Positions 10,351-64,000 of a stretch of 64,000 bases of DNA are shown here, piece after piece. Source of the DNA: Lophium mytilinum (taxonomy: Eukaryota); the NCBI GenBank assembly GCA_010093605.1, contig MU004187.1, forward strand, positions 868,001 to 932,000. The letters run 5' to 3'. Position numbers and translations under genes: made by a program. The first letter of the stretch is position 1. Every line of letters starts with the position of its first letter. The notes beneath the pieces are model-generated. The model saw nothing but the letters and a program-made list of their open reading frames with translations. It was not told where the DNA came from and did not search any database.

Positions 10351-12856
10351 GGCATGGTTGGAAATAAGTCGTTGTTTTGAAGATGCGAAGAAGAGGGAGG
10401 TTCGTAGCGCTTTTATGTAGACGATAGGAATTGAGAAGAGTACTTAGCTATAACAACGTTACCTCCTGAGGAGTATTTTAAAGTCTGCGCAGTTTATAAT
10501 TTACTACTCATTGGGGAAATTAAGGATGGGGACGCTGAATTTGAAGGGTGTACAAGTCTCGAGGTCTACAATTCTCCAGTATTCTCGTCTACGATGCTTA
10601 CGTTGGAAAATGTGACCGCCTACCTGTACGAAGGTCTCTAACACCGACCCGAGTATTTAGGCTGTGTATGTCTGCTCGAGTCTCCAAGGTACCAAGAAGT
10701 CGTAGAACGTGGTATCTAGCCCGGATTGTGATATCGTCAACCAAGCGGGCGGACTCGAGCTACAGCAACCATCCCCGGCTACGCATCCACGGCATCCTGC
10801 AGGAACGCCATCGCGGGACTAGCACACGGAGTCTAGCATTCTAGCGGAAATCGCGCAATGAGTGCCCGTATCGCTAAAATCTTGGTAGAGGGATCTGAAG
10901 CTTGTTTCGTTGTCGTCAACGGCGGCGCGGCGGAATTCGGCACTTCCCCACTTCTCAGAATAGACTTGGACCATGAATCAAATCCTCGGTTTTGAAGAGA
11001 CAGGCCACCTCACGCTTCCAATTCCTGCAGTAGTTGACGTATGCAATGTGCAAGGGGAGGGTTGGGAGAAGGAGCGGGGGCCCGGTATGCATAAGAATTG
11101 TCGTTGATGCCATGACGGATCAACAACGACGCGTGTTTCCGGTCGGCTTTCCAGAACGAATCTAAACCTACAGACGCCGCAGAAGTACACATCAACGTCA
11201 TTACCGTCTCGACTGCGCGTCTGACATGTGCATCGAGGGCTCTAGGACAATGGAACACGACGATCCTGGTTGCGGTGGGTGCGATTGCGAGAGAGTGGTT
11301 CCTGGAGTGTTGCAGAAATGTGGAGATCGGGATGTGCACCGAAAAGCTTGTAGGGGCCAATTGGCTGCCTGTCAATAGTACATATGTAGTCCTGTGGACC
11401 ATCGCAGCTTGCTCCCACATTCCGATGCCGAAGGTTGGCCCGATATCGGTTCGGATGCTTGAGCGGACTGGTCGTGGAGTCGTTCCGTGGAGTGACTTCC
11501 ATGACGCCAAAAGACAGACGGAGGGGACAGCCGGCGTAGAGGTTCGCGCAAGAAGCGGGCAGTATGGCATGCCCTGTGTGGCGCACAAAAACCAATAGCA
11601 CGAGGTTCGGGCGGATAAAGCAACGCGCTAATGGGCTGCACGCTGCTGCAGGTGGGGGCAGGGAAGAAGCTCTGGACAGCTAGCGGAGAACCGCCGGCGC
11701 GCTGTACCGAGTCGAGGAGGTCGACGACGAAGGAGGCAGCCAGTGACAGCAGAGGGTGGCCAGTCGTCAGCTGGGATCCCCACGGCCACGGACGTTGGCG
11801 ATGCAGAAGAAGAGAACAAAACTGAGGGAGTTGGAAAGGAAGCGTGGAAAGGAGATGTGGCACAGATCACAGAGCCAGGGGGCCATGGGCTGCACGCAGT
11901 TCGGTTGGATGCCGGTGCCCGCAGGTCAGTGGGAGTTGCCACAGGAAAATCGTGAGTGGTGCGCGCCCGCTGCGGCCTCGAGCTGCAGCCTCCGGTCAGT
12001 GACTACACACGACTATCCAGAGTCTACTGCTGCGTGGTTTGTAACACGCAGCCCACGCTATTGCAGAGCACGAAGACCGCGTGCTCTCGGCGTGGCCAAT
12101 TTTAGTGTGGAAAGAGGTGCTATGCCCGGGCGTCACCGTCGCTGACCCGAGCGTCAGTCGCCGCTGCCCTCCCGCGATATGGACCTGTGGACCCTTGAAG
12201 CCGAGCGGGAGATAGATGAGACGGTGCGGCTAGAGGCATTCGCAGTGCTCTGAGGCCGCCGGCTTAGATGCTGAGCATATGGCTGCACAGTGACGGCCGG
12301 CATTGGATAAAAAAAAACAGACACTGACCAGGCATATCTATGTAGTCTCTCCTCGGAATGCAGACAATGACGAGACCTTCAGCACTATGCCTCCGCCTCG
12401 GTAGCGGCATCATCGGACCCTGGACGAGGTTTAGTTCACGGGCTCGCCCATCTGGCCTCCTGCTGGGCATCGTCGGCCCCCCTAGCCAGCAGCGCCCCCA
12501 GCACATCGGACCAGGGCTTTCTTCTGCATGCCCGGGGAGCTGTTGTGCTGCCCCGATAAGATGCCGTGGTGCGTTGCCAGGACCCCCAGCCTCGTGCTCT
12601 GCCTGCTACAACTGCTCGACTGCAGCTGTCCTCGCACCCCCCAGGCTCCACTATTCACTCCTGAAAGTCCCTCCTGACGGCCCTTCTGACGGCCCTCTCG
12701 TGCTGTCCGGGCGTGCAATTCACTGCTGCTCTCGTCGCCCGTGTCTGGGAGGCGTCGCGTCCTAGCCAATAATCGCCCGCTGCTGTCACCCTGCATCCCC
12801 TAAACTTTTGCTGCTTGGACCCTCTCCGCTGGTTGGTTGGTTGGTTCATTCATATT

Positions 12857-12887
12857 GCGGTTGTAAGGCGCCGAAGGCGCATGCCGC
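12857..12887 (-). promoter_or_regulatory. LINE 3'-terminal stem-loop next to the (AACC)n tail
   Basis: GCGG(12857)...GCGCC-GAA-GGCGC(12868-12880)...CCGC(12884-12887) forms an interrupted hairpin ~10 nt from the tail. The RT-recognition role is inferred from other stringent LINEs. Confidence 0.6.
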
Positions 12888-14229
12888 GTGGACTTTCAGC
12901 CGGCGGGGGTGGGGTATTTAGGCACGTGAGCGCCCAAATTTTGGGCGCTCTAATGCCTAAATTCCTGCCCTTGCGCCGCTGCCCCGGGGTTCCAAGGCCC
13001 TGAGGAGTAAGTTCCACCTAAGTATATACATGAGAGCCCGTAGCCTAAGGGGGCCCGGGATAAGAGAGCCTAAAAAGAATGAAATCCGCCGCCTATCTGC
13101 CTGCTGGAGGCTATCGTCTTGCCTAGTGCATAGTCCTCTAGCCTATCCTCCCGTAGTTGCAAGTTTATAGCGATTCCTCTACCGCTATGTTTTAGTAGGT
13201 AATGCCGCCTTTCTACCTGCACCGGCAGCTGTTTACAGCAAGTAGTTAGTTAGTTACGGCCTTACTGTAGTTAGTTAGTTAGTTAGTTAGTCTATTTATG
13301 GGCGCTGGGTCGCTATCTAGGGGAGAAATGCAGCGGTTAGAAGCCGCTGCTTAGACGCTGGGTCGCCTTAGGGTGGTGGTTAAAAGCCGCTGCTTCGGGC
13401 GCTGGGTCACCTTAGGGGGTTATTCCACCTAGGGGGTGAATTTAATAATGCATGCCGGCTTAGGGTTTAGCGCCTGGCTTTATAGCCGGGTGTGACCTAT
13501 TAGGTCCTTTAAGCTGGCGCATAAATGAGGGGATAATAACCTTTTAGCAGTTATAACCTTAGTAAGATTGCTTTTAGGCGTAGTAAAAAAAGGACCTTTA
13601 TAGAGCGGGTGTCGCCCTCTAATACGTTATAATAGATATAGCTGTCTCTAAGTACCGCGTGGCGGTTTCCTGCCCCGGCAGGGCTTGTAAGGCCGTAGGG
13701 AAAACCGGGGGTTTTTACTGTGTGTGTAGCGTGGCGGCTTCAGCTGCTAAACTTTAACTAGTAGATTTAGCAGCTCCGGCTGCTAGGCCTTAACGGGGGC
13801 GCTTAGTTCTGCTGCGCGCCTCCTTAAATCTTTATAAATTAAACTGGAACTATTGCCCGGGTACTTATATGCCCGGGGCTTTCTCTAAATGTGGGCCTGT
13901 CTAAATAGAGGGTTGCTTGCAATAATGGGAAAATTCTTCTAAAGGGCTTTACGCCTTTAGCTAAAGGGGGGGGTTTTATTCTTCCGCCTCTATTAGTCTA
14001 AGATTTGGTCTCTAGTAAGAAAGAAAAGAAGTGCAACTACTAGTGCGCTTTACCGCCGCGTAGTGTAGCGGCGGTCCTTATAGGGGCTTCTTAGAATGCT
14101 AAGACTTCTTAAAGTAGGCTAAGTATTACATTTTAGGCCTTGCGCCTGGCGCTAAAGGGGGGCTGGTCCCTCTATTAGCTAAGCGTTATCTCGGCTAATG
14201 TATTAAATATCTGCTAACTATTTATATAG

Positions 14230-15381
14230 AAAAATAGAACCTAAATTAGCTAGTTCTATTATTGCGCCTGTAGGTAATAAAGAACTAGTAGAAGAGGTCT
14301 TGCTATATATTAGTGCCATGTCCTACTATATCGCCTGCTAATTGCTAGCAGGTTACGCTGTAATTAGGCGTATAAGAGTTTTATTAATTATGTAATGGCT
14401 ATAAGTCCCGGGTGGACTTAAGCCTAAGTTAAGCGGCTTATTTAGCGTTGGCTGGCGGTTAGTATAGTTATCTACTACTAACAGGTATTATATTCTATAT
14501 TAAAGGCAATGTATTAGCAGCCTATAGAGGGCGGCTAGAAGTATTAATATTTTTACTGCTTTAAGAGCACTAAGCAGCACCTAAAGTTATGTAACTTACA
14601 CGGCGTTATTTTAGCCTATTAATTCCGAATTCCGCCGGGACTAGTGTCAGTCCTAGAGGAGAGCTCCGCTGCTCTCCTGCCTATTAAGAAGACCGGCCGT
14701 TATATTTATGGTAAATTTGCTATGCGCTACTATGCGCTCTAGTACTATTACGCTAAGGTGCCCTACTACTCTAGCAAGTATAAGAATGAGAAGGCGGCGG
14801 CGGACGCCTTTCTGGCCGCAAATTAGGCCCTTTTTAACTTCCTGGGCGAGAAGTTGCGCCTTATAGACCCGTCTATGGCCGGGAAATTTTAAGGTGCGCT
14901 AAGGGAGCTGCCGGTTAGCGCGCGTGCGCTAAGTAGTCTCTAGATAGGCTGTGCAATTAATTAAGAATAGGATAATGTATTTACTAGTGGGTCTACCTAT
15001 TATAATAAGCATAATAAGCCTAAGGGGTTTAATACTATAGTGCCCTTTAGGTAGTATAAGGGGGTAGATTTACTGCTCTAGCCCCTAAAGGCCCGCGTGG
15101 AGATGCGCCGAGGTAATGCTATTTTCTTCCGCAGGTTATATATTGCGCATAATACTGTTACCGTTAAGTCTAGCGTGTAGAATTTATTAGACTATTTCTT
15201 CTACCGTGTAATATATGGCTGGGTAAAGAAGAAACGTTTAGGCATGCTTTCTTTAGACGACGTGGGTGGTTACTAGCATTATAGTTGGTCTAACAGGCGC
15301 CCTAAGGGCACCTAGGTTCCGCCGCGGAAGGTAGTAAAGCCTAGGCGTGGCGGGAAGGGAAAGGGGAAATCTTCCGGGTAG
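14230..15381 (+). pseudogene. RIP-mutated TET/JBP-like 2OG-Fe(II) dioxygenase gene carried antisense inside the LINE
   Basis: One frame without frameshifts, with stops only as TAA/TAG: ...GVILAY*FRIPPGL...GKFAMRYYAL*...L*IGCAIN*E*...GST-Y-Y-N-KHNKPKGFNTIVPFR*YKGVDLLL*PLKARVEMRRGNAIFFRRLYIAHNTVTVKSSV*NLLDYFFY... Reversing C>T/G>A changes gives H-x-D-x-x-D (from 14998), G.Y.G.DL.LW, RRGD..FFRG, an intact distal His (IAHN, 15148-15150) and a possible R-N-S at 15178. Basic tail RKVVKPRRGGKGKGK. The 5' start is undefined. Confidence 0.75.
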
Positions 15382-15719
15382 ATAGTTTGCTATTTCTTTA
15401 ATGTAGGCCTCTCTAGCCGTCTTATCTTATGCTTCTATATATCGCCGTAACTATATATAAATATAACTGTGTGCTAATATAACTATATGCTAAAGTAACT
15501 GCTAACTAACTAACTATTAACCGTGGGCGTGCCGGGCGTAACTAACCTACTACTTATAAGTGATTTTTACTAGGTTCTATACTAACTTTCTCCTTATTCT
15601 AGGTTCTTCTCTCTCTCTTATTATCTAACTTAGGTGTAGTGGCTTCTTAGTCTTTTTAACCTATTTAGAACTAGGCAAGCCCTTATAAGTATATTAGATT
15701 ATTAATAACTTTCCCCTAA

Positions 15720-18700
15720 TTAGCCCTCTCTAGTAGTAGCGCCCTGCCCCTAGTTAGGGATCCCCGGCTTACAGCGTCTCGCGTTTCTATTAATTCCGCT
15801 GCCTCCGCCTATTCTCTAGACTATCTAGTTATAGGCCCCCTATAGAGTGTCCTTTTAGGCCCTCCTTATAGCGTCTACCCTTTAAGAATGTCGGGTTATA
15901 GGTAGAGTATAGCTTTCTTAGCGTCCACGTTAATATACCGGAATTAATTAAGTACTAACAACTTAATAACTAGTAATGCTGCATGCTTTGCTGCGCTTAG
16001 GTTACTTAAGAGAACGTGTAACTGCGGGATTTTCTTTTCTATACTTACCTATATTGCCTCTCTTTTAGTAGTTAGCTTAGTGCATACATATAAAATATAG
16101 TGTAGCGTTTATCGTTCCTCTATATAGTAGAGCTAGCACTAGGGGGAATCTATAGAAGCGGCCTGGATAGATATTAGGTAACCTGCTATACCGTAGATAC
16201 CTATTAAAAGTTGCGCGATTGTTGCCTAGAGGGGTCTTAAAACTCCCTTTAGTTAGTCTAGATTATATTTACTAGGTACTAGAGTAATCTTCTTATATAG
16301 GCGGCCACGCCGGGTCTTATTCTATTTATTTATCTAGCGCTTAAGTGTAAAGTCTCTTATAAGTCGCTTAGGGTAGTTCTTTAACGGCCGGAGTCCCGGT
16401 AGTTTAAGTGCAAAAGTTGCAGTCTATTTTAATCCTTTAGGTAGCTATCTAATAGCCCTTTTAGCTGTGTTGTCCGCGTATTTATTACCTAGTATGCCTT
16501 TGTATCTAGGAATTTAGTATATCTAGATAGAGCCTATAACCTGCTTGTAGAGCTTGTAAATCTAGATAAGAAAGTACTATTCTTTCTTCGCTATGGCGTC
16601 TGCTAGAGCTTGCACGACGCCCTTATTATTAGTGTATATAACTATTAAGTGCCCCTAATTACTATTATCTTAGGCTAGAATGATTTCTTCTAGCGCTATA
16701 ATTAGGCCGAATGCCTCCGCTTTATACACGGAGTACTTTTCTAGCAGTCCTAGATAAGCTAATGTTCTTGTTGCCTTTTTAATATTAACCGCTGCTAAGC
16801 CGGTTTTATTCTCCTATTCTAAGCCATCTGTATACTAGTAGCTAGAGAAGTTAGCGTAGTTCTTATTATGTGCTGCTATAGCCTCTTCTACTAAGTTTAC
16901 TATAAAAGTTATAGGAAATAGCCCCTATGGGGCGTTAATAAAGGCTATCGCCGGGGCTATATTTAGCGCGCTTACTGTAAATTATTACTCTAGCTGCTGC
17001 TTATAGAGAGATAGAGGGCTCTTATATCTTGCCTCTAGGTTTACTTATTTAATTAAATGGCGGTAGTGGGCCTTAGTGGCCATATTAATAATTATTTGCG
17101 CTGCTACCTACTATAGTATCTGCTGCGCCGGGGAGAGGTGTGCTACTATGTTTAGTATATCGCCCGGTAAGTTTCTAAACATGCCGGTGATAACTGCTGC
17201 TGCCTGTCTCTATAGTATTACTATTATTATAATCGCTTTATTTATGTCTAAGTCTATGCCTTTATACTAGACCAATATTCTAAAGGTAAAGTAGGGCAGT
17301 ATAATTGCCTTATATGCGTGCTGGATAGATATAGTATCGGCGCCCTATATAGGCTTGCTAAGGCACTTAAGAAGGTTAATCTTATATATAGCTTTCTCCT
17401 TAATATGCGCGACGTGTGGTGCAAATATAAGTTGTAAGTTAAGAGTAACTTCTAAAATCTTAACTGTGTCTTCTGCTTTTATAACTATGTTGCCGAAAGC
17501 TAGCAGTCTCTTATTATTGCCTATTTCTCTTATACCTGGCGGAATGCAGTGCACTATATAGAACTTCTCCGGCGTAAACCTAGCTCTATAGGCTTTACTC
17601 TATGCGAGGTACTAGAGTATAATCTATGCTAGCATTGCGCAGGTCTATTTAGTTATCTTGCCTATAGCGACTATATTAGTGTTGTCTATCTAGCTAACTA
17701 TTATTAGCTTTTACCCTTGCTCGTCTTCCTCCTAGTTAAGCGTAATAAGTTCCGCGTTAAAGATAATAAATAGCACCGGCGATAGTAGTAATTCTTGCGG
17801 TATGCTAATATAAATATTCTTAAGCTCTATTATTATGTCTAGCAGGCGCAGCTGTATGCGTTATTTAGTAAGAAAGCTATGCACCTAGTTCCTCTATTGT
17901 CCTTCTAGCCCTATCCTTAATAGGTTGTGTAGTAGCTAGGGGTAGTAGATATAGTTAAACGCTTCTAATATATCTATTAATAGGATTATTACTACTTTCT
18001 TCTTATTCTACGCAGCGTATACCTCTTCTACGAGTTTATATAGCGCGTATTTGCATAACCTGCCTTTCCGTCCTCTAAAGTAAGTAATTAGAATGCTAGC
18101 TATTGTTTCTAGGTAGTATTGCATGCGTTCTACTATTACTGCTTCTAGCGTCTTACTAATAGTGCTAAGTAGCGCTATAGGCCGGTATAAGCTAACCTAG
18201 TTCTTTAGTTTTTCTAGTTTTAGTAGCGGGATTGTAATTAAGCTTTAGAAATATGTAGAGTAGTGTTCTAGTATTATGCTTGCGTTAAAGATTGCCTGCA
18301 TCTAGCGTAGTAGCTTTAACTTTAGGTTATAGGCGCTAGTATTATTACTGCCTATGCCCGCCTTTAGGGCCTTGTAGACAACTCTATCTATACCTGGCGA
18401 GCTATCTATTACTAATCTCTTTACTATTATTGTAATTTTGTGGAGAGTAATAAGCTCTATTCTTGCTAGTTTAGAGTAGTTCTATTACCCTAGGTCGGTG
18501 CCTCTTATAGGCCTTAGAAAGAACTTTTTACGTAGTAGGTTGGCCTTCTCTTTGCTGTCTTATACTTCCCTTATCTTAGTCTATAGCGGGGCTTCTGCTA
18601 TTATTAGCTCTACCGGTAGTGCAACATTAAATATTAGCATGCGCGGTTCTTATCTTTTTACCTCTAATTATCTCTTCTTCTACTTTAGAACGCGCTAGAG

Positions 18701-19830
18701 TTTACTTATATCTTTAGCTTTAGTTATGTCTTTGCGGAAGTAGTCGCGCTTCTAGTTGCGCACTATCTTCCTCTATTCTTTCTTCTGCTTCCGGTATAGA
18801 TAGGCTGCTAGTTCTAACCGGTCCTATCTATATTATTATCGCGTTGCTTATAGCTTTACCCGGGCGTCCTTTATATCCTTAGTAAAGCCTTTCTTTAAGT
18901 AGATTAGATGAATTTTACTTATAGGTGTCGCCTTGCGTGCTGCAGCCTTAACTGCGTTAACTAGAATGTTGGTAAATCTTTTAAGCGCTTCTACTGTGTC
19001 TAGTTTAGCCGGGTTAATATCCGGCAGTAAGTTATTAAGCGCTTTGCAGAGTTTATCTTTATCTATTTCCTTCTATTTTAGACGCTTTTTAACTTCCCTC
19101 CTAGCGGGAGGTGGCACGCTAAGTTAGGTGCCTATTAGTATATAGTCGCCGCTATAGTTATATTTATCTGCCGGGGCGCAGAACTATATATATGTTTCTA
19201 GCGTTATTAAGACTAAGATAAGGTTAATTGTTAATGGTCTGTTTGCCAGGTTATTAGGAAAGTGTGTAGATAGGTTCCTTTCTACGCATTATTATATATT
19301 ATGCTTTTATATTAGCTGGGCTACTACTTGTCCCCTTATATCTATAGGTTGTTTAGTATTCTATGCTAGGTAGTGGGCATTAAAGTCCCCTACTATAATG
19401 TATTTAGCTGTTGGGTATATAAACTAGTAGCGCGTTATAGCTTTATTAAGCTCTATAATAGCTTCTATCTAGTTTATATTACCTAGTATTTAATAGATAT
19501 TTAAGAATAGTATCTTCTAGTTATTTTTAAGTGTAAGTAGAATCGTGTTCCTAAAGTTGCCTATATAGTAGTTCTACTATACTTTACTATAAATCTTTTT
19601 ATTTATATATAGCGCTGTTTAAGTTAAGAGGTTACCTATAAATAGGCACTAGAATTTGCTGTATTAACTTATTATAATTAAGTTCTTTTAAAAGGTATTA
19701 AGGAACAGGTTCTATATTGCTATAATATTAAATTTAGCAATTAATTTATCTAAGAAGAGGGATTAGGTATTCGCGTAAGTATGCTGGATGTTCTATTATA
19801 GGATTTTTAGTCCGGCTTTAGTATCTATTA
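15720..19830 (-). pseudogene. LINE ORF2 (APE endonuclease, reverse transcriptase, RNase H, C-terminal zinc knuckle), RIP-degenerate
   Basis: Minus-strand motifs: IIVGDFNAH (~19380), YRPIALLSTISKTLEAVI (~18160), DI..AF (~17965), IPQ..LLSPVLFIIF (~17790), *IDNTNI (~17685), YTDG (~16830), SVYKAEAF (~16725), IPRYKGILGNKYAD from WIPGHKG (~16500) and C..C......HIL..C (~16110). Boundaries approximate. Confidence 0.9.
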
Positions 19831-19839
19831 TAGGTATTA

Positions 19840-21810
19840 ACCTGGTGTCGCCTTATTAAGTCTACTATAATATTACTGTTGCTATCCTCCTCTAAGGACC
19901 TGTTCTAGGAGGGGAATTAGTTGCCGTATAATTATAAGGGGGCAAGGCTATAGTCCTCTTCTTCGCCCGCGTTGCTATTAACCGGTCGGGGGGTCCACGC
20001 GTTATTTATTGTCTCGGGCGGTTATTTGCCCGATAATAGCTCCTGTGTTAGGTTATTCTAAAGCTTTAATTGCTTTAGCGTTTTATTCTTCTTGCCGGAA
20101 TCTGCGGCTAAGCTAGCGCGTTTCCTCTTTCTAGCCGTGCCTTCTAGCTGGGCCTATGCCGCCTTTGCCGTGGGTTTACGTTTCTATTTCCTACTCTTTT
20201 TCTTGTTAATAATGCTGGCTTATGGCGTTGCATTAGTAGAGCTTAACGCGTTCTAGCTAGAGGACTGCGTGTTTCCCTCTTAGTTAGTATTGTCTTTCCG
20301 GCCGGCTTATTTAGCCGCTATTGCTAGTTTACGTGCCTATGCTGTGACTTGTAGTCTTGCTTATACTACTTACTTCTTAGTATCTCTTAACTTAAGTTCT
20401 ATATTCCGGAGCTTTTATTAGTCTGGTGTCAGTTTGCTTAGCGGTATTTCTGGCCGTGTAAGGGGCGTTTTCTTCCGCCGCGTTAGCGTGGCAGCCTCTA
20501 GCGTTAGGGTTGCTATAATAGGGGTATCGCTACTAGATTTAATACTGCTCTATTCGCCTTACTTAGCTGGCATAGCCGAGTTAACTGCTGTTTGCGACGA
20601 GGGAATAATAGTAATCTCCGCGGTGTCTTCCCGGATCCTTAGTATCCGGGGCTGTGCTCCTGTATCTAATATTCCTGGTAATATTCCAAGTTCTAGTATT
20701 ATAGCTTCCAGCGACGCGTGCTCCTTGTGTTATTGTAGTCTATTCTTTTTAGGCCGTGGCGCTTCTATCTATGTATTTTTAGGGTTAAGGGCGCCGCCTA
20801 CATTTTATACATTTTAGTGCACCTAGCTGTTAGCTAAGAGTTAGGGATAGGGCACTGTATACCTGTAAGGGAGGCTCTATAGCCTCTCCTCTACCTCCTC
20901 CCTAGCCCGCTGGCGCATTTTGTACTTTGCGGAGTACGCTAGGTAAGGCTTACTATATAGCGGGCAGTGCGGAGGCAACTATTAATTAGGGTAGTTGGTT
21001 ATTAAGTGCGCCTCGGCGCAGTAAGCGCAGGACTGTAATGCGCGGCATTGGGTTTTAATATATCTATAGTGGTTGCATTTAAAGCATTATTAAAGCCTGC
21101 ATCCGCTGTTATACTATATAGTATTAAGTAGTTTACTATTCTATAGTATATACTAATCTAGTACTATGTTTATATTCTTGGGACTATTAAACTAGATAAT
21201 AAGAGAGCTGTAACTTTTTAAATTAACTTAATTACTTATTAGCTAGCTAATGTAGAGAATTTAGGCCTTAGGCATTGCTATAGCATTATAGTGCTGCAGT
21301 TTTCTAATAGCCGCCGCTTTACTGATTGCGTCTATAGTAATGCTGTTAACTGGAAAGTTATATACAATAACGCCGTACGAGTCTTGTAATACGCTGCTCC
21401 CTGGCCCTAGTACCTATGTCTACTTATCCTACTTAAGGAGCTAGACTTGGTCCTTATTAGTATAAGGGTGGACGTTAAGGTCGCTAGAGAGTAGCAGGTG
21501 TACTGCCCGCGCTGTCTTTCTATAGGGCATAAGCGCGGCGTTAATAAGCACCTTAAGCTGTCCTCCTTTCTTGTCTGCCGCCCGCAAAGCATTAATAGAC
21601 CCCAAGCCTTTAATCTTTACGCAGAGCGGCGGGGTGGGTTTTATTATTGTGGCAGCGCTGCCTATCGCGGTTAGGGTATCTTGTGCGGCGGCGGCGTTAA
21701 CCTTAGTGGCTAGTACCTTAGACAGGTTGTTAATGTTGGCGGCGGTTAGTCTAGCTGGTTGCTGGTTATAGGTCTTCTATTGGGACTAGTTTATTATTAT
21801 CTTTATTATG
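19840..21810 (-). pseudogene. LINE ORF1 (gag-like, three zinc knuckles), RIP-degenerate
   Basis: CFKCNHY(G)(H)IKTQC, CAYCAEAH....(C) and HCPL(C).KP(H)....K(C) at ~20920-21090, the triple CCHC typical of fungal Tad-like ORF1. Boundaries approximate. Confidence 0.8.
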
Positions 21811-22488
21811 AATTTAACGTTGTGGATGAGTTAGGCGCTGGTTTAATTGTGGGCTTTAATCTTGCGGGCGGCGGCGGCGGCTTTAACTATAAGTGCTAGA
21901 TAGGACTTGAGTATAGTGCGGACGGCGTTTTCTTCTACGCTCTTGACGGTCTTATATGTTTCCAGCGCGCGGAGGCAGGCTTCTTATGCTGTTTGGGCGT
22001 GGTCTTGCAATAGGGTGTGGTGGGTAACGGGCGTAAAATCCGCTGCCTTTTTTAATAATATTATGAATAACGTCTAAAACGCGTCCAGAGAACTTTGTTT
22101 GAGCGATGATTCTGATTAGTATGTTAAGGCGAGTTGATTGCGACCAATATTTGTGTCTATTGTGTTGTGGATTCCAATCGTTGGGGTTGCTGGGTGTGTG
22201 GTGTTTTCGACCCTCTCCGCCGCGCTCAATTCCTCCACCACCACCGCCCCTCAAGCAACCTTGGAACACCACCCTCGCCGCTCTCACACCTCCACAGCCT
22301 CGTTCACGGCACTGCCAGTCCTCGGACACTCCACTCGTTTCAAACCCGTTCCGCTCCTTGAATTAATAGTGGCGCCCCGAAACCGACGCGATAGTCGCGC
22401 TGTGCCGCACTTGAATCCGCAGAGCACCTCATCAGACATCGAACTGCCCAACAGTAATGCAGTAACCACACCATCACGACCGCCCCTC

Positions 22489-24701
22489 ATGAAGCGCTTC
22501 TCCATCCCCGACCCGCGCCAGCTGCTGAGCGTGCGGACGCGCTTCTCCTACGAAAAGCTGCCCGGCGGAGACAGCCAGAGCAACTCGCCGCTCTTCTCCT
22601 CTCTCCCGACCAAATGGCGACAGGATCCTCGCCAGTGGCGCTTTGGCTGGCCTCGCATGACCCTCACGCGCATTGTCGGGCTCCTCATTGTGTTGGTGAT
22701 GGTGGCCACTTCGACTGGTGTTGGTCTCTACAAGAGACATCTACGCCATGAAGAGGAGAGGAGGAGAGGACAGCGCACACCATACCATTGGGAGGCTTTC
22801 CCTCGGTAAGTTTTGTGTGCCTCGAGAAACATTAGAGACCTGCTTGCTAACTGTCGGGCAGACTCAATGGCTACTACAGCGGCATCTACAACCTCGTCCC
22901 AGCCTCCGACTGGGTCTCCGAACAGGCCGTCGTGAAAAATGCTACAGCCCACAAAGTTGCGGCACCAAAGTACACCCCGCCTGTCGTCAAAGAGCCTCCG
23001 ATGGACCCCGAGATCTTCAATCCCTACCCCGATTACAAATCTTTCAAGTACCTTGAGACGCATAACCCCGTGCAGCCGTGCTACTTGGACGAGGAGACCA
23101 AGGTTGAGATTCCCGATGTCTACGTCTACCCGGGAATACCCCAGAACATGACAGACCCTTCCTTTGGATCCTATAAAGAGCTCGGACTGAACAGCAAGGT
23201 CTGCTATGATCGATTCTCCCGATACGCAACCTACGGTTACGGCTTCTCGAAGGAGGAGGGTGGACTCGGCATGTCTGGCAAGTCCGAGGCTGTAGGCGCT
23301 GACAAGATCTGGCATCTGGAGAAGAAGGTGGATTACAGGAAGATCAAGTGGGCTACGGCGCAGCGAAAGTGTTATGAAAAGAACAAGATCCGATTCGACA
23401 AGACCGCTGTCAATGCGGAGGGTCAAAAGCCTGATCAGAGTAAGAAGACGCTTCCCCGACACGCCTACATTCTGCGGACGTGGACTGGCTACAAGTGGTC
23501 AGACTATCAAATGCTGGCTCTGCGTGCCATGATTAGCGAGCTTAGTCTCAAATCTGGCGGCGAGTACGACATTCACTTCCTCGTGCATGTCAAGGACGAC
23601 AGCATACCAATCTGGGCGTCCGACGAGGTATACCAGAAAACATTGCAGGACAATGTGCCTGAAGAATTCTGGGGCATGGCAACGCTGTGGTCTGAGCAGC
23701 AGATGAAGATGTTCTATCCAGAGCCATTCCCAGACAATGTTTTCAACCACGCCAAAGCTCCAATCCACTCCGTCTATCGAAGCGCTCATTTCGCACTCCA
23801 GTGGTTCTCTCAATTCCGCCCCGAGTACGACTTCTACTGGAACTGGGAAATGGATCTCCGATACACTGGTCACTACTACGAGTTCCACAACCAAATCGGC
23901 GAATGGGCCAAGCAACAACCTCGTAAGGGAATCTGGGAGCGTAGTTCTCGCTACTACATTCCGGAGCTCCATGGGTCTTGGCACAATTTTACTGAGCTGG
24001 TCGAAGAAGAAACCTTCCAGGGCGACGAAAAGCCTGTCTGGGGTCCACCAGAGTTCGAAAACCGGGGGATGATTGCGCCGCCCGAGGACAGCAAACCCCC
24101 CAGGTCCTACCTCCAGGACAAGTACGAATGGGGTGTTGGCGAGGATGCCGATCTGATCACCTTCAATCCCATCTTCGACCCTGCCAAGACGAACTGGGTT
24201 TTCCGAGAGGACGTCACAGGTTACGATCTCAAGATGCCAATTCCTCCCCGGCGGTGTGCAATCATTACTGTATCGCGTCTTTCCAAGCGTCTTCTTGATA
24301 TTATGCACAAAGAGACATACCACATGCGACACCACATGTTCCCTGAAATGTGGCCTCCGAGTGTCGCTTTCCACCACGGCCTCAAAGCTGTTTACGCACC
24401 GCATGCTATACATTTCGACCGCAATTGGCCACTGGAAACCCTCGACAAGACCTTCAACTACCCGCCTGTACCCGAAGAGAGTGTATTTGGCTGGGGAGAA
24501 CACAACCAGCTTGGCAGCAGCTTCTACTACAACTCGGGATTCTCTTCTGCCCTATGGAGACGCTGGCTAGGCTCGAAAGAGAACCAAGAGGGCGGTAATG
24601 CGGAAGAGATAGCCGATTCTGGACGCATGTGTCTTCGCCCGATCCTCTTCCATCCCATCAAGAAAGAGTTCGGCACTGAGGCTGACCAAGGACCGCCATG
24701 A
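22489..24701 (+). CDS. DUF3405-type type II membrane protein (putative glycosyltransferase-like)
   Basis: N-terminal TM anchor. Intron 22806-22861 joins FPR|LNGYYSG. Motifs LRAMISELSLKSGGEYDIHFLVHVKD, YDFYWNWEMDLRYTGHYY, WGVGEDADLITFNPIFDP and PILFHPIK. Family assigned from recall. Confidence 0.85.
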
Positions 24702-56689: not shown

Positions 56690-57570
56690 AAATTTCGTAC
56701 CTCTCAGGGGGGTCTTTCATTGGTATCCAACGTGTCAAACTGCTCATGCACATGTCTTAATCGTGGACGTCCAGGCGAAGAGGTACGCTGCATCTATCTG
56801 CGTGACTGATGTCAAATATACAACGTTACAATCTTTACATTCACAATAGTCAAATGCTACAACCCTCGGGGGAGTCTTCCATCGGTATCCAATGTTTCAA
56901 ATCGCTCGTACACATGCCTTAATCGTGGATGTGTAGGAAAGGAGGTGCGCTACAGCCATCTGCGTGACCAATGTCCAATTCACAATGTAACAACCTTTGC
57001 ATTGACCGTATTGGAAAGCTCCAACCCCCGGGGGCGTTTTTCATCGGTATTCAAACTCGCAAAGCGAATATATGCTTGACCTGATCTTAGAGGTGCAGGA
57101 AAAGAGAGGCGCTGCAGCATCATGTATAACCACTGTCCAGTTCACAGCGCTACGACCTTTACATTCACGGTACGTCAAAGCTCCAACGCCCAGGGGGGTC
57201 TTCCATCGGTATCTAACCCAGCAAACTGTATCCAAACTTGGTCTGATTTTGGAGGGACAGGAAAAAGGGGGCGCTGCAGCAATCCGCGTAACTAACGTCA
57301 AGTTTACAGTGTTGTAACCTTGACATTCAGGTTTCTTAACCCTCCAACACCCAGGGGGGTCTTCCATCGGTATCTACCCCCGCAAAACGTAGGTATAGCT
57401 GACCTAATATCAGAAGTGCAAGAGAAGAGGTGCGCTGTACCAATCCAATTAATATATGTCCAGTTCACGGCGTTATAGCCTTGACATTCACGTTCTCCAA
57501 TTATCTAACATCCAGGGGCGTCTTCCGTTGGTATACAGCCCCGGAAAACGTATGTATATATAGCCTAATA
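56690..57570 (-). repeat. Array of ~6 units (161-162 bp) of the same satellite family, inverted orientation
   Basis: GGGGTCTTCCATCGGTATC-type motif, with GGTAT at 56722, 56884, 57046, 57208, 57369 and 57530. Confidence 0.9.
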
Positions 57571-58002
57571 TATAGAAGAGAGAAATATAGGGGTCTACGC
57601 AGCGTAATAGTTACAAGAACGTGTGTTAGTTGCTATTTATACTAAAAGTAGCTAGCTTTAATAAATAGCATTACTTACAACTTACTTCCTAAGTAGTAGT
57701 TATAAGATCTAGTATTAGCTACAAGTTCTACCCTAAGGGTTAGTTATAATAGACCCGATTAGTTATATATTCTTCCCTAAGCGTTAGTTAGAAAATATAA
57801 TATTAGTGCAATAGTTATATCATCACAACATTTACTATAAGTTCCAAGTTAAACAACAAGTTACTACGTTCTGTAGCAAACAAGGGCCCATTGCGGCCAC
57901 GCTTAGTATCTATATCGTACAAAAACCACCCATAAACGGGCCTGAACCCCCCTCTCTCGCTCCACAAACCCCCCAATCCACCATTCATCCCCACCCCACA
58001 GC

Positions 58003-62439: not shown

Positions 62440-63017
62440 AAGGTTAGTAAAGGAACTGGACTAGACTAGAGTAGATTTCGCCTTAAATCCACTCCATCTA
62501 TAGCAATTTCTATAGAGCTCTAGAAGCTCTAGAAGCTCTATAATAGGGCTAAGGGTTACCTAAAATAGTTAGTAGCCTTCTAAATTAGTTTAGCGCTAAG
62601 ATATTCTAGAGTTAAGGTTTAGTAACTCTTTAATTTATATAGTTATTAATTAGCCTTTCTATTTTATATAGCTATTAATTAGCCTTTCTATTTTATATAG
62701 CTCTCTCTCTAGTTATTATTAGCTATTATAAATAAGTTATTTATTAAACTTAGTATTCTTAGCTACTCTATATACTATCTATAATAGCTATATTCTACTC
62801 TCTATATAGGTATATAGCTTATATACTATTATATAAGTAAGCTATTATATAACTACTATTAGTCTATATACTCTAGCTAAACTATAATCTTAAAGCTAGC
62901 GCCGCCCTAGCTTTTTATAGATTCTTTCTAGTTATAATTAATAATCTATTTTCTATAATACTTCTTTAGTTCTATAATACTAAAAATCTATCTTTCTTAC
63001 TTTAGAAAAGATAGAAG

Positions 63018-63055
<38 letters not shown>

Positions 63056-64000
63056 TCTATTAATATATAATATTACTACTATCTATTTAGAGTACTTATA
63101 CTACTACTAATAGCCTAGCCTTAATTTTTTCTTTTACTTAAACTCTTTTATTTTAGTAAAGGCGCGGCTCTACTACTATAGCTAGTACTCTATCTTTATA
63201 AGAAGAAGAAATAAAGAAAGTTATTAAGAAGAAAACCTTAGAAAACCTAATCTCTAGTATACTATTAATAGCGCGCTCTACCCCCCGCCCTAATATAGCT
63301 ATAATAGTAGCTTTATAAATAGAAATATAGAAGACTCTTAGTACTAAATCTTAAATATATTAGTGTAGTATATATATTAGTGCTAAACTTAATAAGCTCT
63401 TCTCTACTCTAAAAGCGCGCGTAGCCTAATAGAATAGAGGTAAACTTATTTATAAGAATAACTTAAATACTAATAAAGAGAATAATAATAAAAGTAAGGC
63501 CTCTACTAGAACTCTATTAGCTATCTATATAACGCGGAACGTTAATAAAGTTATAGAGGTAAAAGGTGTTGTATTAAGCTAGAGCTATAGCGCCGTCTTA
63601 AGAACGGCGCTAACTAAGGCCTACGCTTACGTAGGCAGCCTATATGTACTGTGCCTTACGTGCTGTCCTCTATAAGCCTGTTACTAACGTCCGTAACCGT
63701 AATAAGTGCCTATAATAAGGAAAGATGTTATTATCCTTAATAACCGCATGCCTAATATCTAAGTGCTAAGTGCATGTAAGAGACGGCGGCGTGGAATAAC
63801 GTAGCTATTATAGTTAATAATAGGCGCCTATAGAGCCTAAGACGGCCTTGCAACTAATGGCGGCCTTAAAAGAGTAATAGAGGGCTTGCAAATAATAAAG
63901 AGAGTATAGACGTAGTCTTGGGTAGTTAGGTCTTAGGTAATTAAGCCTGTAGTAATTAAGCTGTAGTAATTAATCTATAGCGATTAAGCTATTGGTAATA
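62440..64000. mobile_element. Heavily RIP-mutated AT-rich repeat/transposon relic, unclassified; continues beyond the window
   Basis: Abrupt shift to very high TpA and near absence of CpA/TpG, no ORFs, (TAC)n tract at ~63018-63054, ~33-bp tandem duplication at ~62620-62700. Confidence 0.75.

Follow-up and report, generated by a model that had tools for sequence, protein, structure and literature searches.

Results

A RIP-degraded LINE bounded by a target-site duplication

The window analysed here, a 64,000-nucleotide (64-kb) stretch of Lophium mytilinum contig MU004187.1 (positions 868,001 to 932,000 of the forward strand), contains the relic of a long interspersed nuclear element (LINE), a retrotransposon of the type that lacks long terminal repeats (non-LTR), whose 3' untranslated region (UTR) holds on the opposite strand the relic of a gene of the TET/JBP family of 2-oxoglutarate (2OG)/Fe(II) dioxygenases. 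A sequence-only reading of the window had proposed that LINE and gene were inserted as one unit and that the gene might serve the element as a self-encoded anti-silencing system. The bracketing 12-bp target-site duplication (TSD) on which that reading relied is exact at both positions given in Table 1, and the 12-mer GACCCTCTCCGC has no further match in the window (both matches exact in a search allowing up to one mismatch; 0.35 expected). One TSD copy adjoins a (TGGT)4.2 repeat, while the other adjoins the 5' end of the element, which is the far edge of an AT-rich block in which the GC content falls from about 0.6 outside to 0.34-0.48 within. The hallmarks of target-primed reverse transcription are present, namely a TSD of variable sequence, a defined 3' tail, two insertions with different TSDs (see below) and ends that have neither an LTR nor a terminal inverted repeat (TIR). 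The block is a full-length minus-strand LINE, 9,379 bp long, that was killed by repeat-induced point mutation (RIP).

The coding relics agree with this description. ORF2 is a single minus-strand frame of 1357 residues with X at 86 stops; it scores 37.8 bits against the Pfam reverse transcriptase family RVT_1, above the cut-off of 29.6, and matches Exo_endo_phos_2 at E 0.0065, under the cut-off of that family. Residues 98-1340 align without a frameshift to an intact protein of 1292 aa, P0249 (BLASTP E 2e-79), in which Exo_endo_phos, RVT_1 and RNase_H are all above their Pfam cut-offs. A Pfam scan of the ORF1 relic returned no matches; its zinc knuckle was read from the translation. At the 3' end, the 26-nt arms of the main hairpin stem are 85% complementary, and the RNA fold of 12830-12990 reaches -66.3 kcal/mol (z -4.26), with none of 200 shuffles equally stable. 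The RVT_1 score, the P0249 alignment, the fold and the tandem-repeat call for the tail thus uphold the earlier description of a LINE with ORF1, ORF2, a 3' hairpin and an (AACC)n tail. The element is presumably Tad/I-like (Tad1/I-type), a clade label suggested by its domain order. Its 3' UTR measures about 3.1 kb, or roughly 0.75 kb when the module described below is subtracted, an estimate for which the end of ORF2 was taken from the P0249 alignment.

RIP indices are high and uniform over approximately 13080-22080, with TpA/ApT at 1.4-3.3 and (CpA+TpG)/(ApC+GpT) mostly at 0.3-0.9; they are normal outside the unit, and the terminal 100-250 bp at either end are less affected. The cargo had been described as RIP-mutated as heavily as the LINE core, and the two are indeed equally depleted in CA and TG, plus-strand CpA being 0.014 in the TET module and 0.013 in the LINE core and TpG 0.049 in both. 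The damage is also strand-asymmetric over 13080-22080, with plus-strand CpA at 0.014 and TpG at 0.049, as against 0.06-0.08 for both dinucleotides in the flanks.

Table 1. Features of the retrotransposed unit and its borders, in window coordinates (TRF, Tandem Repeats Finder).
Feature	Positions	Strand	Remarks
Whole retrotransposed unit, RIP-degraded LINE with TET module	12830..22208	minus	9,379 bp; from TSD bracket, RIP indices and second copy
TSD, 3' side	12818..12829	n/a	GACCCTCTCCGC
LINE microsatellite tail, (ACCA/AACC)n	12830..12846	minus	TRF: (TGGT)4.2 on plus strand
3'-terminal RNA hairpins	12868..12965	minus	main stem 12913-12938 / 12940-12965; small GC stem ~12868-12880
Left inverted-repeat arm	13240..13291	n/a	two (TTAG)n blocks
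Region of ~1.1 kb upstream of TET frame	13292..14394	plus	presumed promoter/5' region
44-nt tandem repeat in module	13335..13417	n/a	1.9 copies
TET/JBP-family 2OG/Fe(II) dioxygenase gene relic	14395..15381	plus	14395 is first intact in-frame ATG; frame traceable from 14230
HxD iron-binding motif	14998..15006	plus	now Y-Y-N; His to TAT (14998), Asp to AAT (15004), each one single RIP-type transition
Distal iron-binding His	15148..15150	plus	CAT, intact
2OG-binding Arg column	15178..15180	plus	now TAG, reachable from Arg codon via C>T and G>A alone; R in 11/11 relatives
Right inverted-repeat arm	15497..15555	n/a
LINE ORF2 relic	16082..19810	minus	endonuclease ~19253-19462, reverse transcriptase 17549-18196, RNase H ~16457-16846, then C-terminal Cys motif
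LINE ORF1 relic	20700..22100	minus	CX2CX4HX4C zinc knuckle at ~21045-21086
TSD, 5' side	22209..22220	n/a	GACCCTCTCCGC

A second insertion of the composite unit

Copies were counted in contigs from two runs (X1 and X2) of one sample, aligned to 12300-22700 at 80% likeness or above. Beside contigs identical to the window, a second, diverged set tiles the entire unit at 80-87% identity. Within this set, a 2135-bp contig matches 12972-15040 (86.5% identity over 13823-15040, with 164 differences and 14 gaps in 1218 nt) and connects the N-terminal two thirds of the TET relic with the LINE 3' region, and a 4497-bp contig (depth 58.7 in X1 and 113 in X2), collinear with 15012-19499, connects the C-terminal third of the TET relic with ORF2. 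The 4497-bp contig carries a 4-nt deletion at 15486 and joints at 15521 through 19436, and it fully covers the bin 15076-15422, where the depths add up as 168.1 = 109.4 + 58.7 in X1 and 262.5 = 149.5 + 113 in X2. An 11,079-bp contig matches as far as 22208 and then continues into an unrelated flank. Just before 12828 the loose end finishes with ATTATCGTGCA, and the one that follows 22208 starts with ATTATCGTGCA, which gives the second insertion its own 11-bp TSD. The module is collinear in both copies, the alignment to the second taking in the left arm and, of the right arm, the inner half, and 414 of the 514 differences between the copies (X1) are transitions, as is expected from independent RIP.

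Because the two insertions have identical termini and different TSDs, the composite moved as one piece at least twice: the 9.4-kb unit was copied whole by target-primed reverse transcription. The additional 3' region had been read as inserted together with the LINE, and in the contigs of this sample the second copy shows that region joined to ORF2 between a fresh TSD of its own. Co-mobilisation of the TET cargo by the LINE is in our judgement highly probable. A site-specific DNA element could in principle strike the same 3' UTR site twice and thus enter each LINE copy separately, although the collinearity of the module in both copies and a RIP load equal to that of the LINE core speak against this; the other way of obtaining two such copies, segmental duplication, is excluded by the differing flanks and TSDs at identical element ends. 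We regard either course of events as exceedingly improbable.

At least one additional 3' end, joined to a different flank at 12831, is also present in the contigs, as is a fragment some 105 nt long. Over 12830-12993, which comprises the hairpin and tail, the final 100-160 nt reach a contig depth of 428, compared with about 150-215 elsewhere, and the additional 3'-end contigs show the other flank at 12831, a divergence at 12934 and a diverged variant at 12890. These are probably 5'-truncated copies or related short elements with a common 3' end.

An antisense relic of the TET/JBP family

The plus-strand frame 14230-15390 contains 26 stops, every one TAA or TAG, and no frameshift, just as had been reported for an opposite-strand, RIP-mutated frame at approximately 14230-15381. 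Homology to the closest intact relative, P0119, covers 14413-15243 (41.6% identity over 279 aa, tblastn E 4.7e-46), and the gene is intronless across the aligned region. A full phmmer scan of 1.84 billion representative proteins gave 117 relatives at E<=1e-3 and 48 at E<=1e-10, the best at 4.2e-36. Those with names belong to metagenome-assembled genomes of lichen-associated Ascomycota (Watsoniomyces, Sclerophora, Vezdaea) and to Ascobolus; the remainder come from metagenomes. Used directly as query, the relic returned no match in Pfam, PDB-sequence and word-indexed protein searches, and the word-indexed search was empty where full phmmer was fruitful because RIP destroys exact words. The C-terminus of the relic is a Lys/Arg-rich tail, a possible nuclear-localisation signal.

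Assignment of the gene to TET/JBP was approached through its relatives. In a Pfam scan of 24 of them, 19 matched Tet_JBP (PF12851) at E<0.01; P0119 has no Pfam match. A profile of 40 intact relatives, compared with PDB sequences, matched the Naegleria Tet-like dioxygenase (NgTet1) at E 7e-7 and 1e-6 and Coprinopsis CcTet at E 0.006; the four best PDB sequences were all Tet enzymes, and the next 2OG families followed at E of about 1. The fold was compared on P0119 and not on the relic itself. Its AlphaFold2 model (pLDDT 92.2) retrieved CcTet in Foldseek at 2.1e-15 (TMq 0.64), NgTET1 at 1e-13, human TET2 at 3.5e-10 and CMD1 at 1.7e-9, whereas AlkB and FTO reached just 1e-5 to 1e-6. In a protein atlas, 28 of 30 feature hits fell within one set of Tet_JBP-bearing clusters. 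CcTet from Coprinopsis cinerea (PDB 7vpn, 7w5p and 8jkk) and NgTET1 from Naegleria (4lt5 and 5cg8) are thus the best structural and profile matches, and their HxD...H...R core aligns with that of the present family, although identity in the structural alignments is merely 13-18% and the copy in the window is a dead relic.

Another 2OG/Fe(II) oxygenase, whether AlkB-like, prolyl hydroxylase-like or a metabolic enzyme, could also underlie the frame. Pfam gives this alternative some room, since none of the 24 relatives reaches the PF12851 gathering score of 34.9 (best 34.7) and single relatives weakly touch 2OG-FeII_Oxy_3 or WelO5. Against it stand the four leading PDB matches of the profile, all Tet, with every other 2OG family left at E of about 1, and the Foldseek ranking, in which CcTet, NgTET1, TET2 and CMD1 precede AlkB and FTO by four to ten orders of magnitude; we consider it very unlikely. 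By profile and predicted fold the relic belongs to the TET/JBP family, though just under the Pfam threshold, and the profile search and the P0119 model agree on TET/JBP rather than AlkB, the choice that the sequence-only reading had posed.

Catalytic residues and the state of the gene before RIP

Conservation across the 40 relatives is at least 90% for each of the four residues expected to bind iron and 2OG (H237, D239, H287 and R297). In the relic the motif order HxD..G.Y.G.DL.L..L...GD..FF....H......R.S....H is as previously stated, and it was likewise right that the HxD residues and the Arg have to be back-mutated and that the distal His alone is intact: the codons now read TAT, AAT and TAG, compared with CAT at 15148. 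Conserved columns were defined by at least 70% agreement among 11 aligned relatives (n=102). The relic is identical to the consensus in 67 of the 102 and differs in 35, of which 22 can arise from a codon for the consensus residue through C>T or G>A changes only and one through the reverse changes. The lost His, Asp and Arg all lie within the RIP-explainable class. Reconstructed in this way, the inferred ancestor would have held the HxD...H triad and the 2OG-binding Arg that the present copy has lost, and, because the catalytic losses are RIP-type transitions, the TET gene was probably intact when the composite spread.

An inverted-repeat module around the TET gene

The TET gene lies within a 2.3-kb module (13240-15555) whose two edges are formed by inverted repeats, imperfect and about 55-60 nt long. 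The two arms share a 22-nt core at 86% complementarity and perfect 15-nt (TTAG)n/(CTAA)n arms, and (TTAG)3 is confined to them within the window (8 matches, 0.27 expected). The flanks of the module, ...ACAGC and ATAAG..., have no clear repeat by eye that would mark a TSD, short repeats being blurred by RIP. The six frames of 12830-14397 contain no Pfam family and no transposase, and the sole Rfam match in approximately 12830-14395 is at chance level (E 0.41; 21.7 bits against a gathering score of 60). No solo copy of the module at 80% or above was found in the contigs, where the depth in 14035-15075 corresponds to exactly two contigs, both in LINE context.

Since inverted repeats bound the module, its arrival is suggested to have been of the TIR type, and it was probably a nested insertion into the LINE, resembling a non-autonomous DNA transposon, that preceded the spread of the composite. 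According to the earlier reading, an independent nested insertion should reveal itself by termini belonging to the segment and by LINE copies that lack it; the first of these was found, in the form of the inverted repeats, whereas both full LINE copies seen in the contigs carry the segment. We also considered whether the LINE machinery had made the TET gene as a retrocopy, which would end in a (CCAA)n tail and lie between direct TSDs, but rejected this as the leading origin because the flanking repeats are inverted and not direct.

In a broader form of that idea, the arms would be microsatellites like the LINE's own (AACC)n tail, and the TET gene would have been captured with the help of the LINE, by retrocopy insertion or template switching. 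Both arms are built of (TTAG)n/(CTAA)n blocks, the expected product of RIP at CpA on (AACC)n, a (CTAA)3.8 block is found on the plus strand some 120 nt past the TET stop codon, and the lack of introns in the aligned region would also suit such a capture. The arms are nevertheless inverted rather than direct and hence provide no retrocopy TSD, their similarity reaches past the microsatellite into non-repeat bases (the 22 nt at 86%), and a direct repeat flanking a retrocopy was not found in this region. Capture through the tail is in our view unlikely.

Discussion

Relation to known TET/JBP carriers

TET/JBP genes are known as cargo of DNA transposons. They are carried by the Kyakuja/Dileera/Zisupton (KDZ) elements (Iyer 2014, as cited in later work), and Kojima 2025 (PMC12730594), a recent survey of transposons in fungi, describes such cargo in eleven DNA-transposon lineages of rusts, mushrooms and Pezizomycetes, with carriers that include KDZ, hAT, Harbinger, IS3EU, EnSpm, ESTA, Plavaka and Helitron elements. 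Chlamydomonas DNA-1_cRei and Helitrons carry TET/JBP as well, according to bioRxiv 10.1101/2022.06.16.496473. Kojima also sought TET/JBP genes in retrotransposons, and that paper reports none and gives reasons for their absence. The literature on TET/JBP together with retrotransposons or LINEs that we searched, the supplementary tables of Kojima 2025 aside, yielded no report of a TET-bearing retrotransposon, in line with the suspicion of the sequence-only reading that such cargo was unrecorded in a non-LTR retroelement. Within these sources the present element would be the first non-LTR retrotransposon with a TET/JBP gene, transposon-borne TET/JBP itself being already known.

As far as those descriptions go, the element resembles the TET/JBP-bearing DNA transposons in that a mobile element has a stand-alone TET/JBP gene dispensable for transposition chemistry, in that the gene is proposed to erase or modify 5-methylcytosine marks on the element, and in that the gene lies between inverted repeats as in a TIR element. 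It differs from them in its carrier, here a non-LTR retrotransposon that moves via RNA and holds the gene antisense in its 3' UTR. The Pezizomycete PE type has an HxE hallmark in the account of Kojima 2025 (PMC12730594), whereas the present family has HxD, and the host here is a Dothideomycete, a class outside the three lineages which that account covers. A partial parallel is the orchid Ty3/Gypsy element with an ALKBH m6A-demethylase domain, reportedly (PMC9289625) a 2OG/Fe(II) dioxygenase acting on nucleic-acid methylation that a retrotransposon has acquired; that element is an LTR element of plants with a domain of the AlkB family, while here a LINE carries a separate antisense TET/JBP gene.

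With the fungal LINEs that we take to be its Tad1/I-type kin, the element shares domain order, an 11-12-bp TSD, a microsatellite tail and RIP degradation. It departs from them in the length of its 3' UTR, about 3.1 kb in place of the roughly 0.75 kb estimated without the 2.3-kb antisense module.

A model for the composite element

The explanation that we favour, with moderate confidence, is that of a Dothideomycete LINE whose 3' UTR acquired an antisense TET/JBP module, which was then co-retrotransposed and later inactivated by RIP. In this model, the 3' UTR of a Tad/I-like LINE would have gained the 2.3-kb inverted-repeat module with its antisense, intronless TET/JBP gene through an insertion into one master element, ahead of the last retrotranspositions. 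LINE RNA including the antisense module was then reverse-transcribed into new sites at least twice. The TET gene would be transcribed from a promoter of its own on the opposite strand, predicted to lie in the stretch of roughly 1.1 kb that separates the ATG from the left arm, and its antisense orientation may have kept its signals from truncating or disturbing the LINE transcript. Given its 3' position, the TET gene would also be carried by insertions that are 5'-truncated but still about 2.8 kb long or longer. The putative enzyme may have acted on LINE copies by oxidising their 5-methylcytosine, thereby opposing silencing that is based on methylation. The whole unit was finally inactivated by RIP.

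Several observations, in addition to the sub-threshold Pfam results above, weigh against this explanation. There are just two full copies at 80% or above, and the contigs perhaps come from the window's own source sample, so that they are not assembly-independent. These contigs break at words common to both copies (~12857-12972, 15012-15040 and 19472-19499), the linkage of the three second-copy contigs rests on exactly two paths per node, and alignment pieces were assigned to one contig by equal depth figures and collinearity. The inverted-repeat termini of the module suit the insertion of a passenger as well as that of selected cargo. The TET gene spared neither copy from RIP, and both copies are dead. 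Lastly, an ORF listing and tblastn with ORF1 and ORF2 found LINE ORFs near the relatives at none of seven metagenome loci (L001-L007; flanks of 1.7-9 kb), and the family of TET relatives accordingly appears, across just those seven loci and their short flanks, not to be generally LINE-borne. A search with ORF2 gave one protein only, and its contig differs from those of the TET relatives.

The main rival accepts the same history and departs from it in the functional step alone. It holds that the module is a passive hitch-hiker, a TIR-bounded non-autonomous TET element that happened by chance to land in the 3' UTR of one master LINE and was copied with it, conferring no benefit and under no selection. 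Two copies could have arisen merely since a 3' UTR tolerates inserts, the inverted-repeat termini are what such a hitch-hiker would have, many lineages of DNA transposons are known to carry TET/JBP genes, which pass from one lineage to another (Kojima 2025, PMC12730594), and none of the seven relative loci adjoins LINE ORFs. The module, on the other hand, has no recognisable transposase, its TSD is unreadable and no solo copy of it at 80% or above is present in the contigs; in addition, because the TET ORF is free of frameshifts and the damage at its conserved sites is mostly of the RIP type, it would have been intact while the composite spread. We treat passive carriage as a serious possibility without expecting it to hold.

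The putative anti-silencing function of the LINE-borne TET enzyme is accordingly put forward only tentatively. The self-encoded anti-silencing system that the first reading had proposed was not borne out, in that there are two copies only, both RIP-dead, and no intact LINE-TET unit was found elsewhere, the seven metagenome loci having yielded none. The wider proposal that a fungal LINE lineage uses a self-carried putative TET/JBP enzyme as a counter-defence against silencing by cytosine methylation, its truncated copies seeding working TET genes, seems to us doubtful. If true, it would make this the first TET gene carried by a retrotransposon, and it could account for some of the stand-alone TET-like paralogues that occur in several copies in lichen-associated and other Ascomycota.

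Two sets of TET-like paralogues were seen at the metagenome loci, one comprising L002 540-1308, L003 7830-8598 and L006 3524-3910 and the other L004 1482-2213, L005 1-727 and L007 1967-2307. Nucleotide identity within the sets is 75-91% and is limited to the gene and a short upstream stretch, with no reverse transcriptase nearby. So limited a similarity points to units that are present in several copies, and are possibly mobile, in other fungi.

As a means by which mobile DNA might counter epigenetic defence, TET/JBP genes carried by transposons are the leading candidate, and in the sources consulted they have so far been reported in DNA transposons only. That a LINE has copied a TET/JBP gene along with itself means that the barrier to carriage by retrotransposons is not absolute, and it provides a natural case of an antisense gene cassette passing through an RNA intermediate in a LINE 3' UTR. 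Dothideomycetes and lichen-associated Ascomycota are the places in which to seek intact, testable units; if intact copies exist, they would allow a direct test of whether a retroelement erases the methylation marks of its host.

Neighbouring sequence in the window

A DUF3405 gene (22851-24701) has the LINE 5' end about 640 bp upstream of it, and the RIP signatures fade before this gene. It shares 93% identity with a Mytilinidion resinicola protein, which places the host among the Dothideomycetes. At the window edge, 62501-64000 forms a second, very strongly RIP-like block with GC of 0.25-0.39 and (CpA+TpG)/(ApC+GpT) down to 0.03. A tblastn search of this block with the LINE ORFs gave nothing; within it, 62667-62836 weakly resembles LINE 19436-19592 (64% over 172 nt). 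A short RIP-like patch at 57501-58000 (TpA/ApT 1.64, GC 0.38) lies between ordinary genes.

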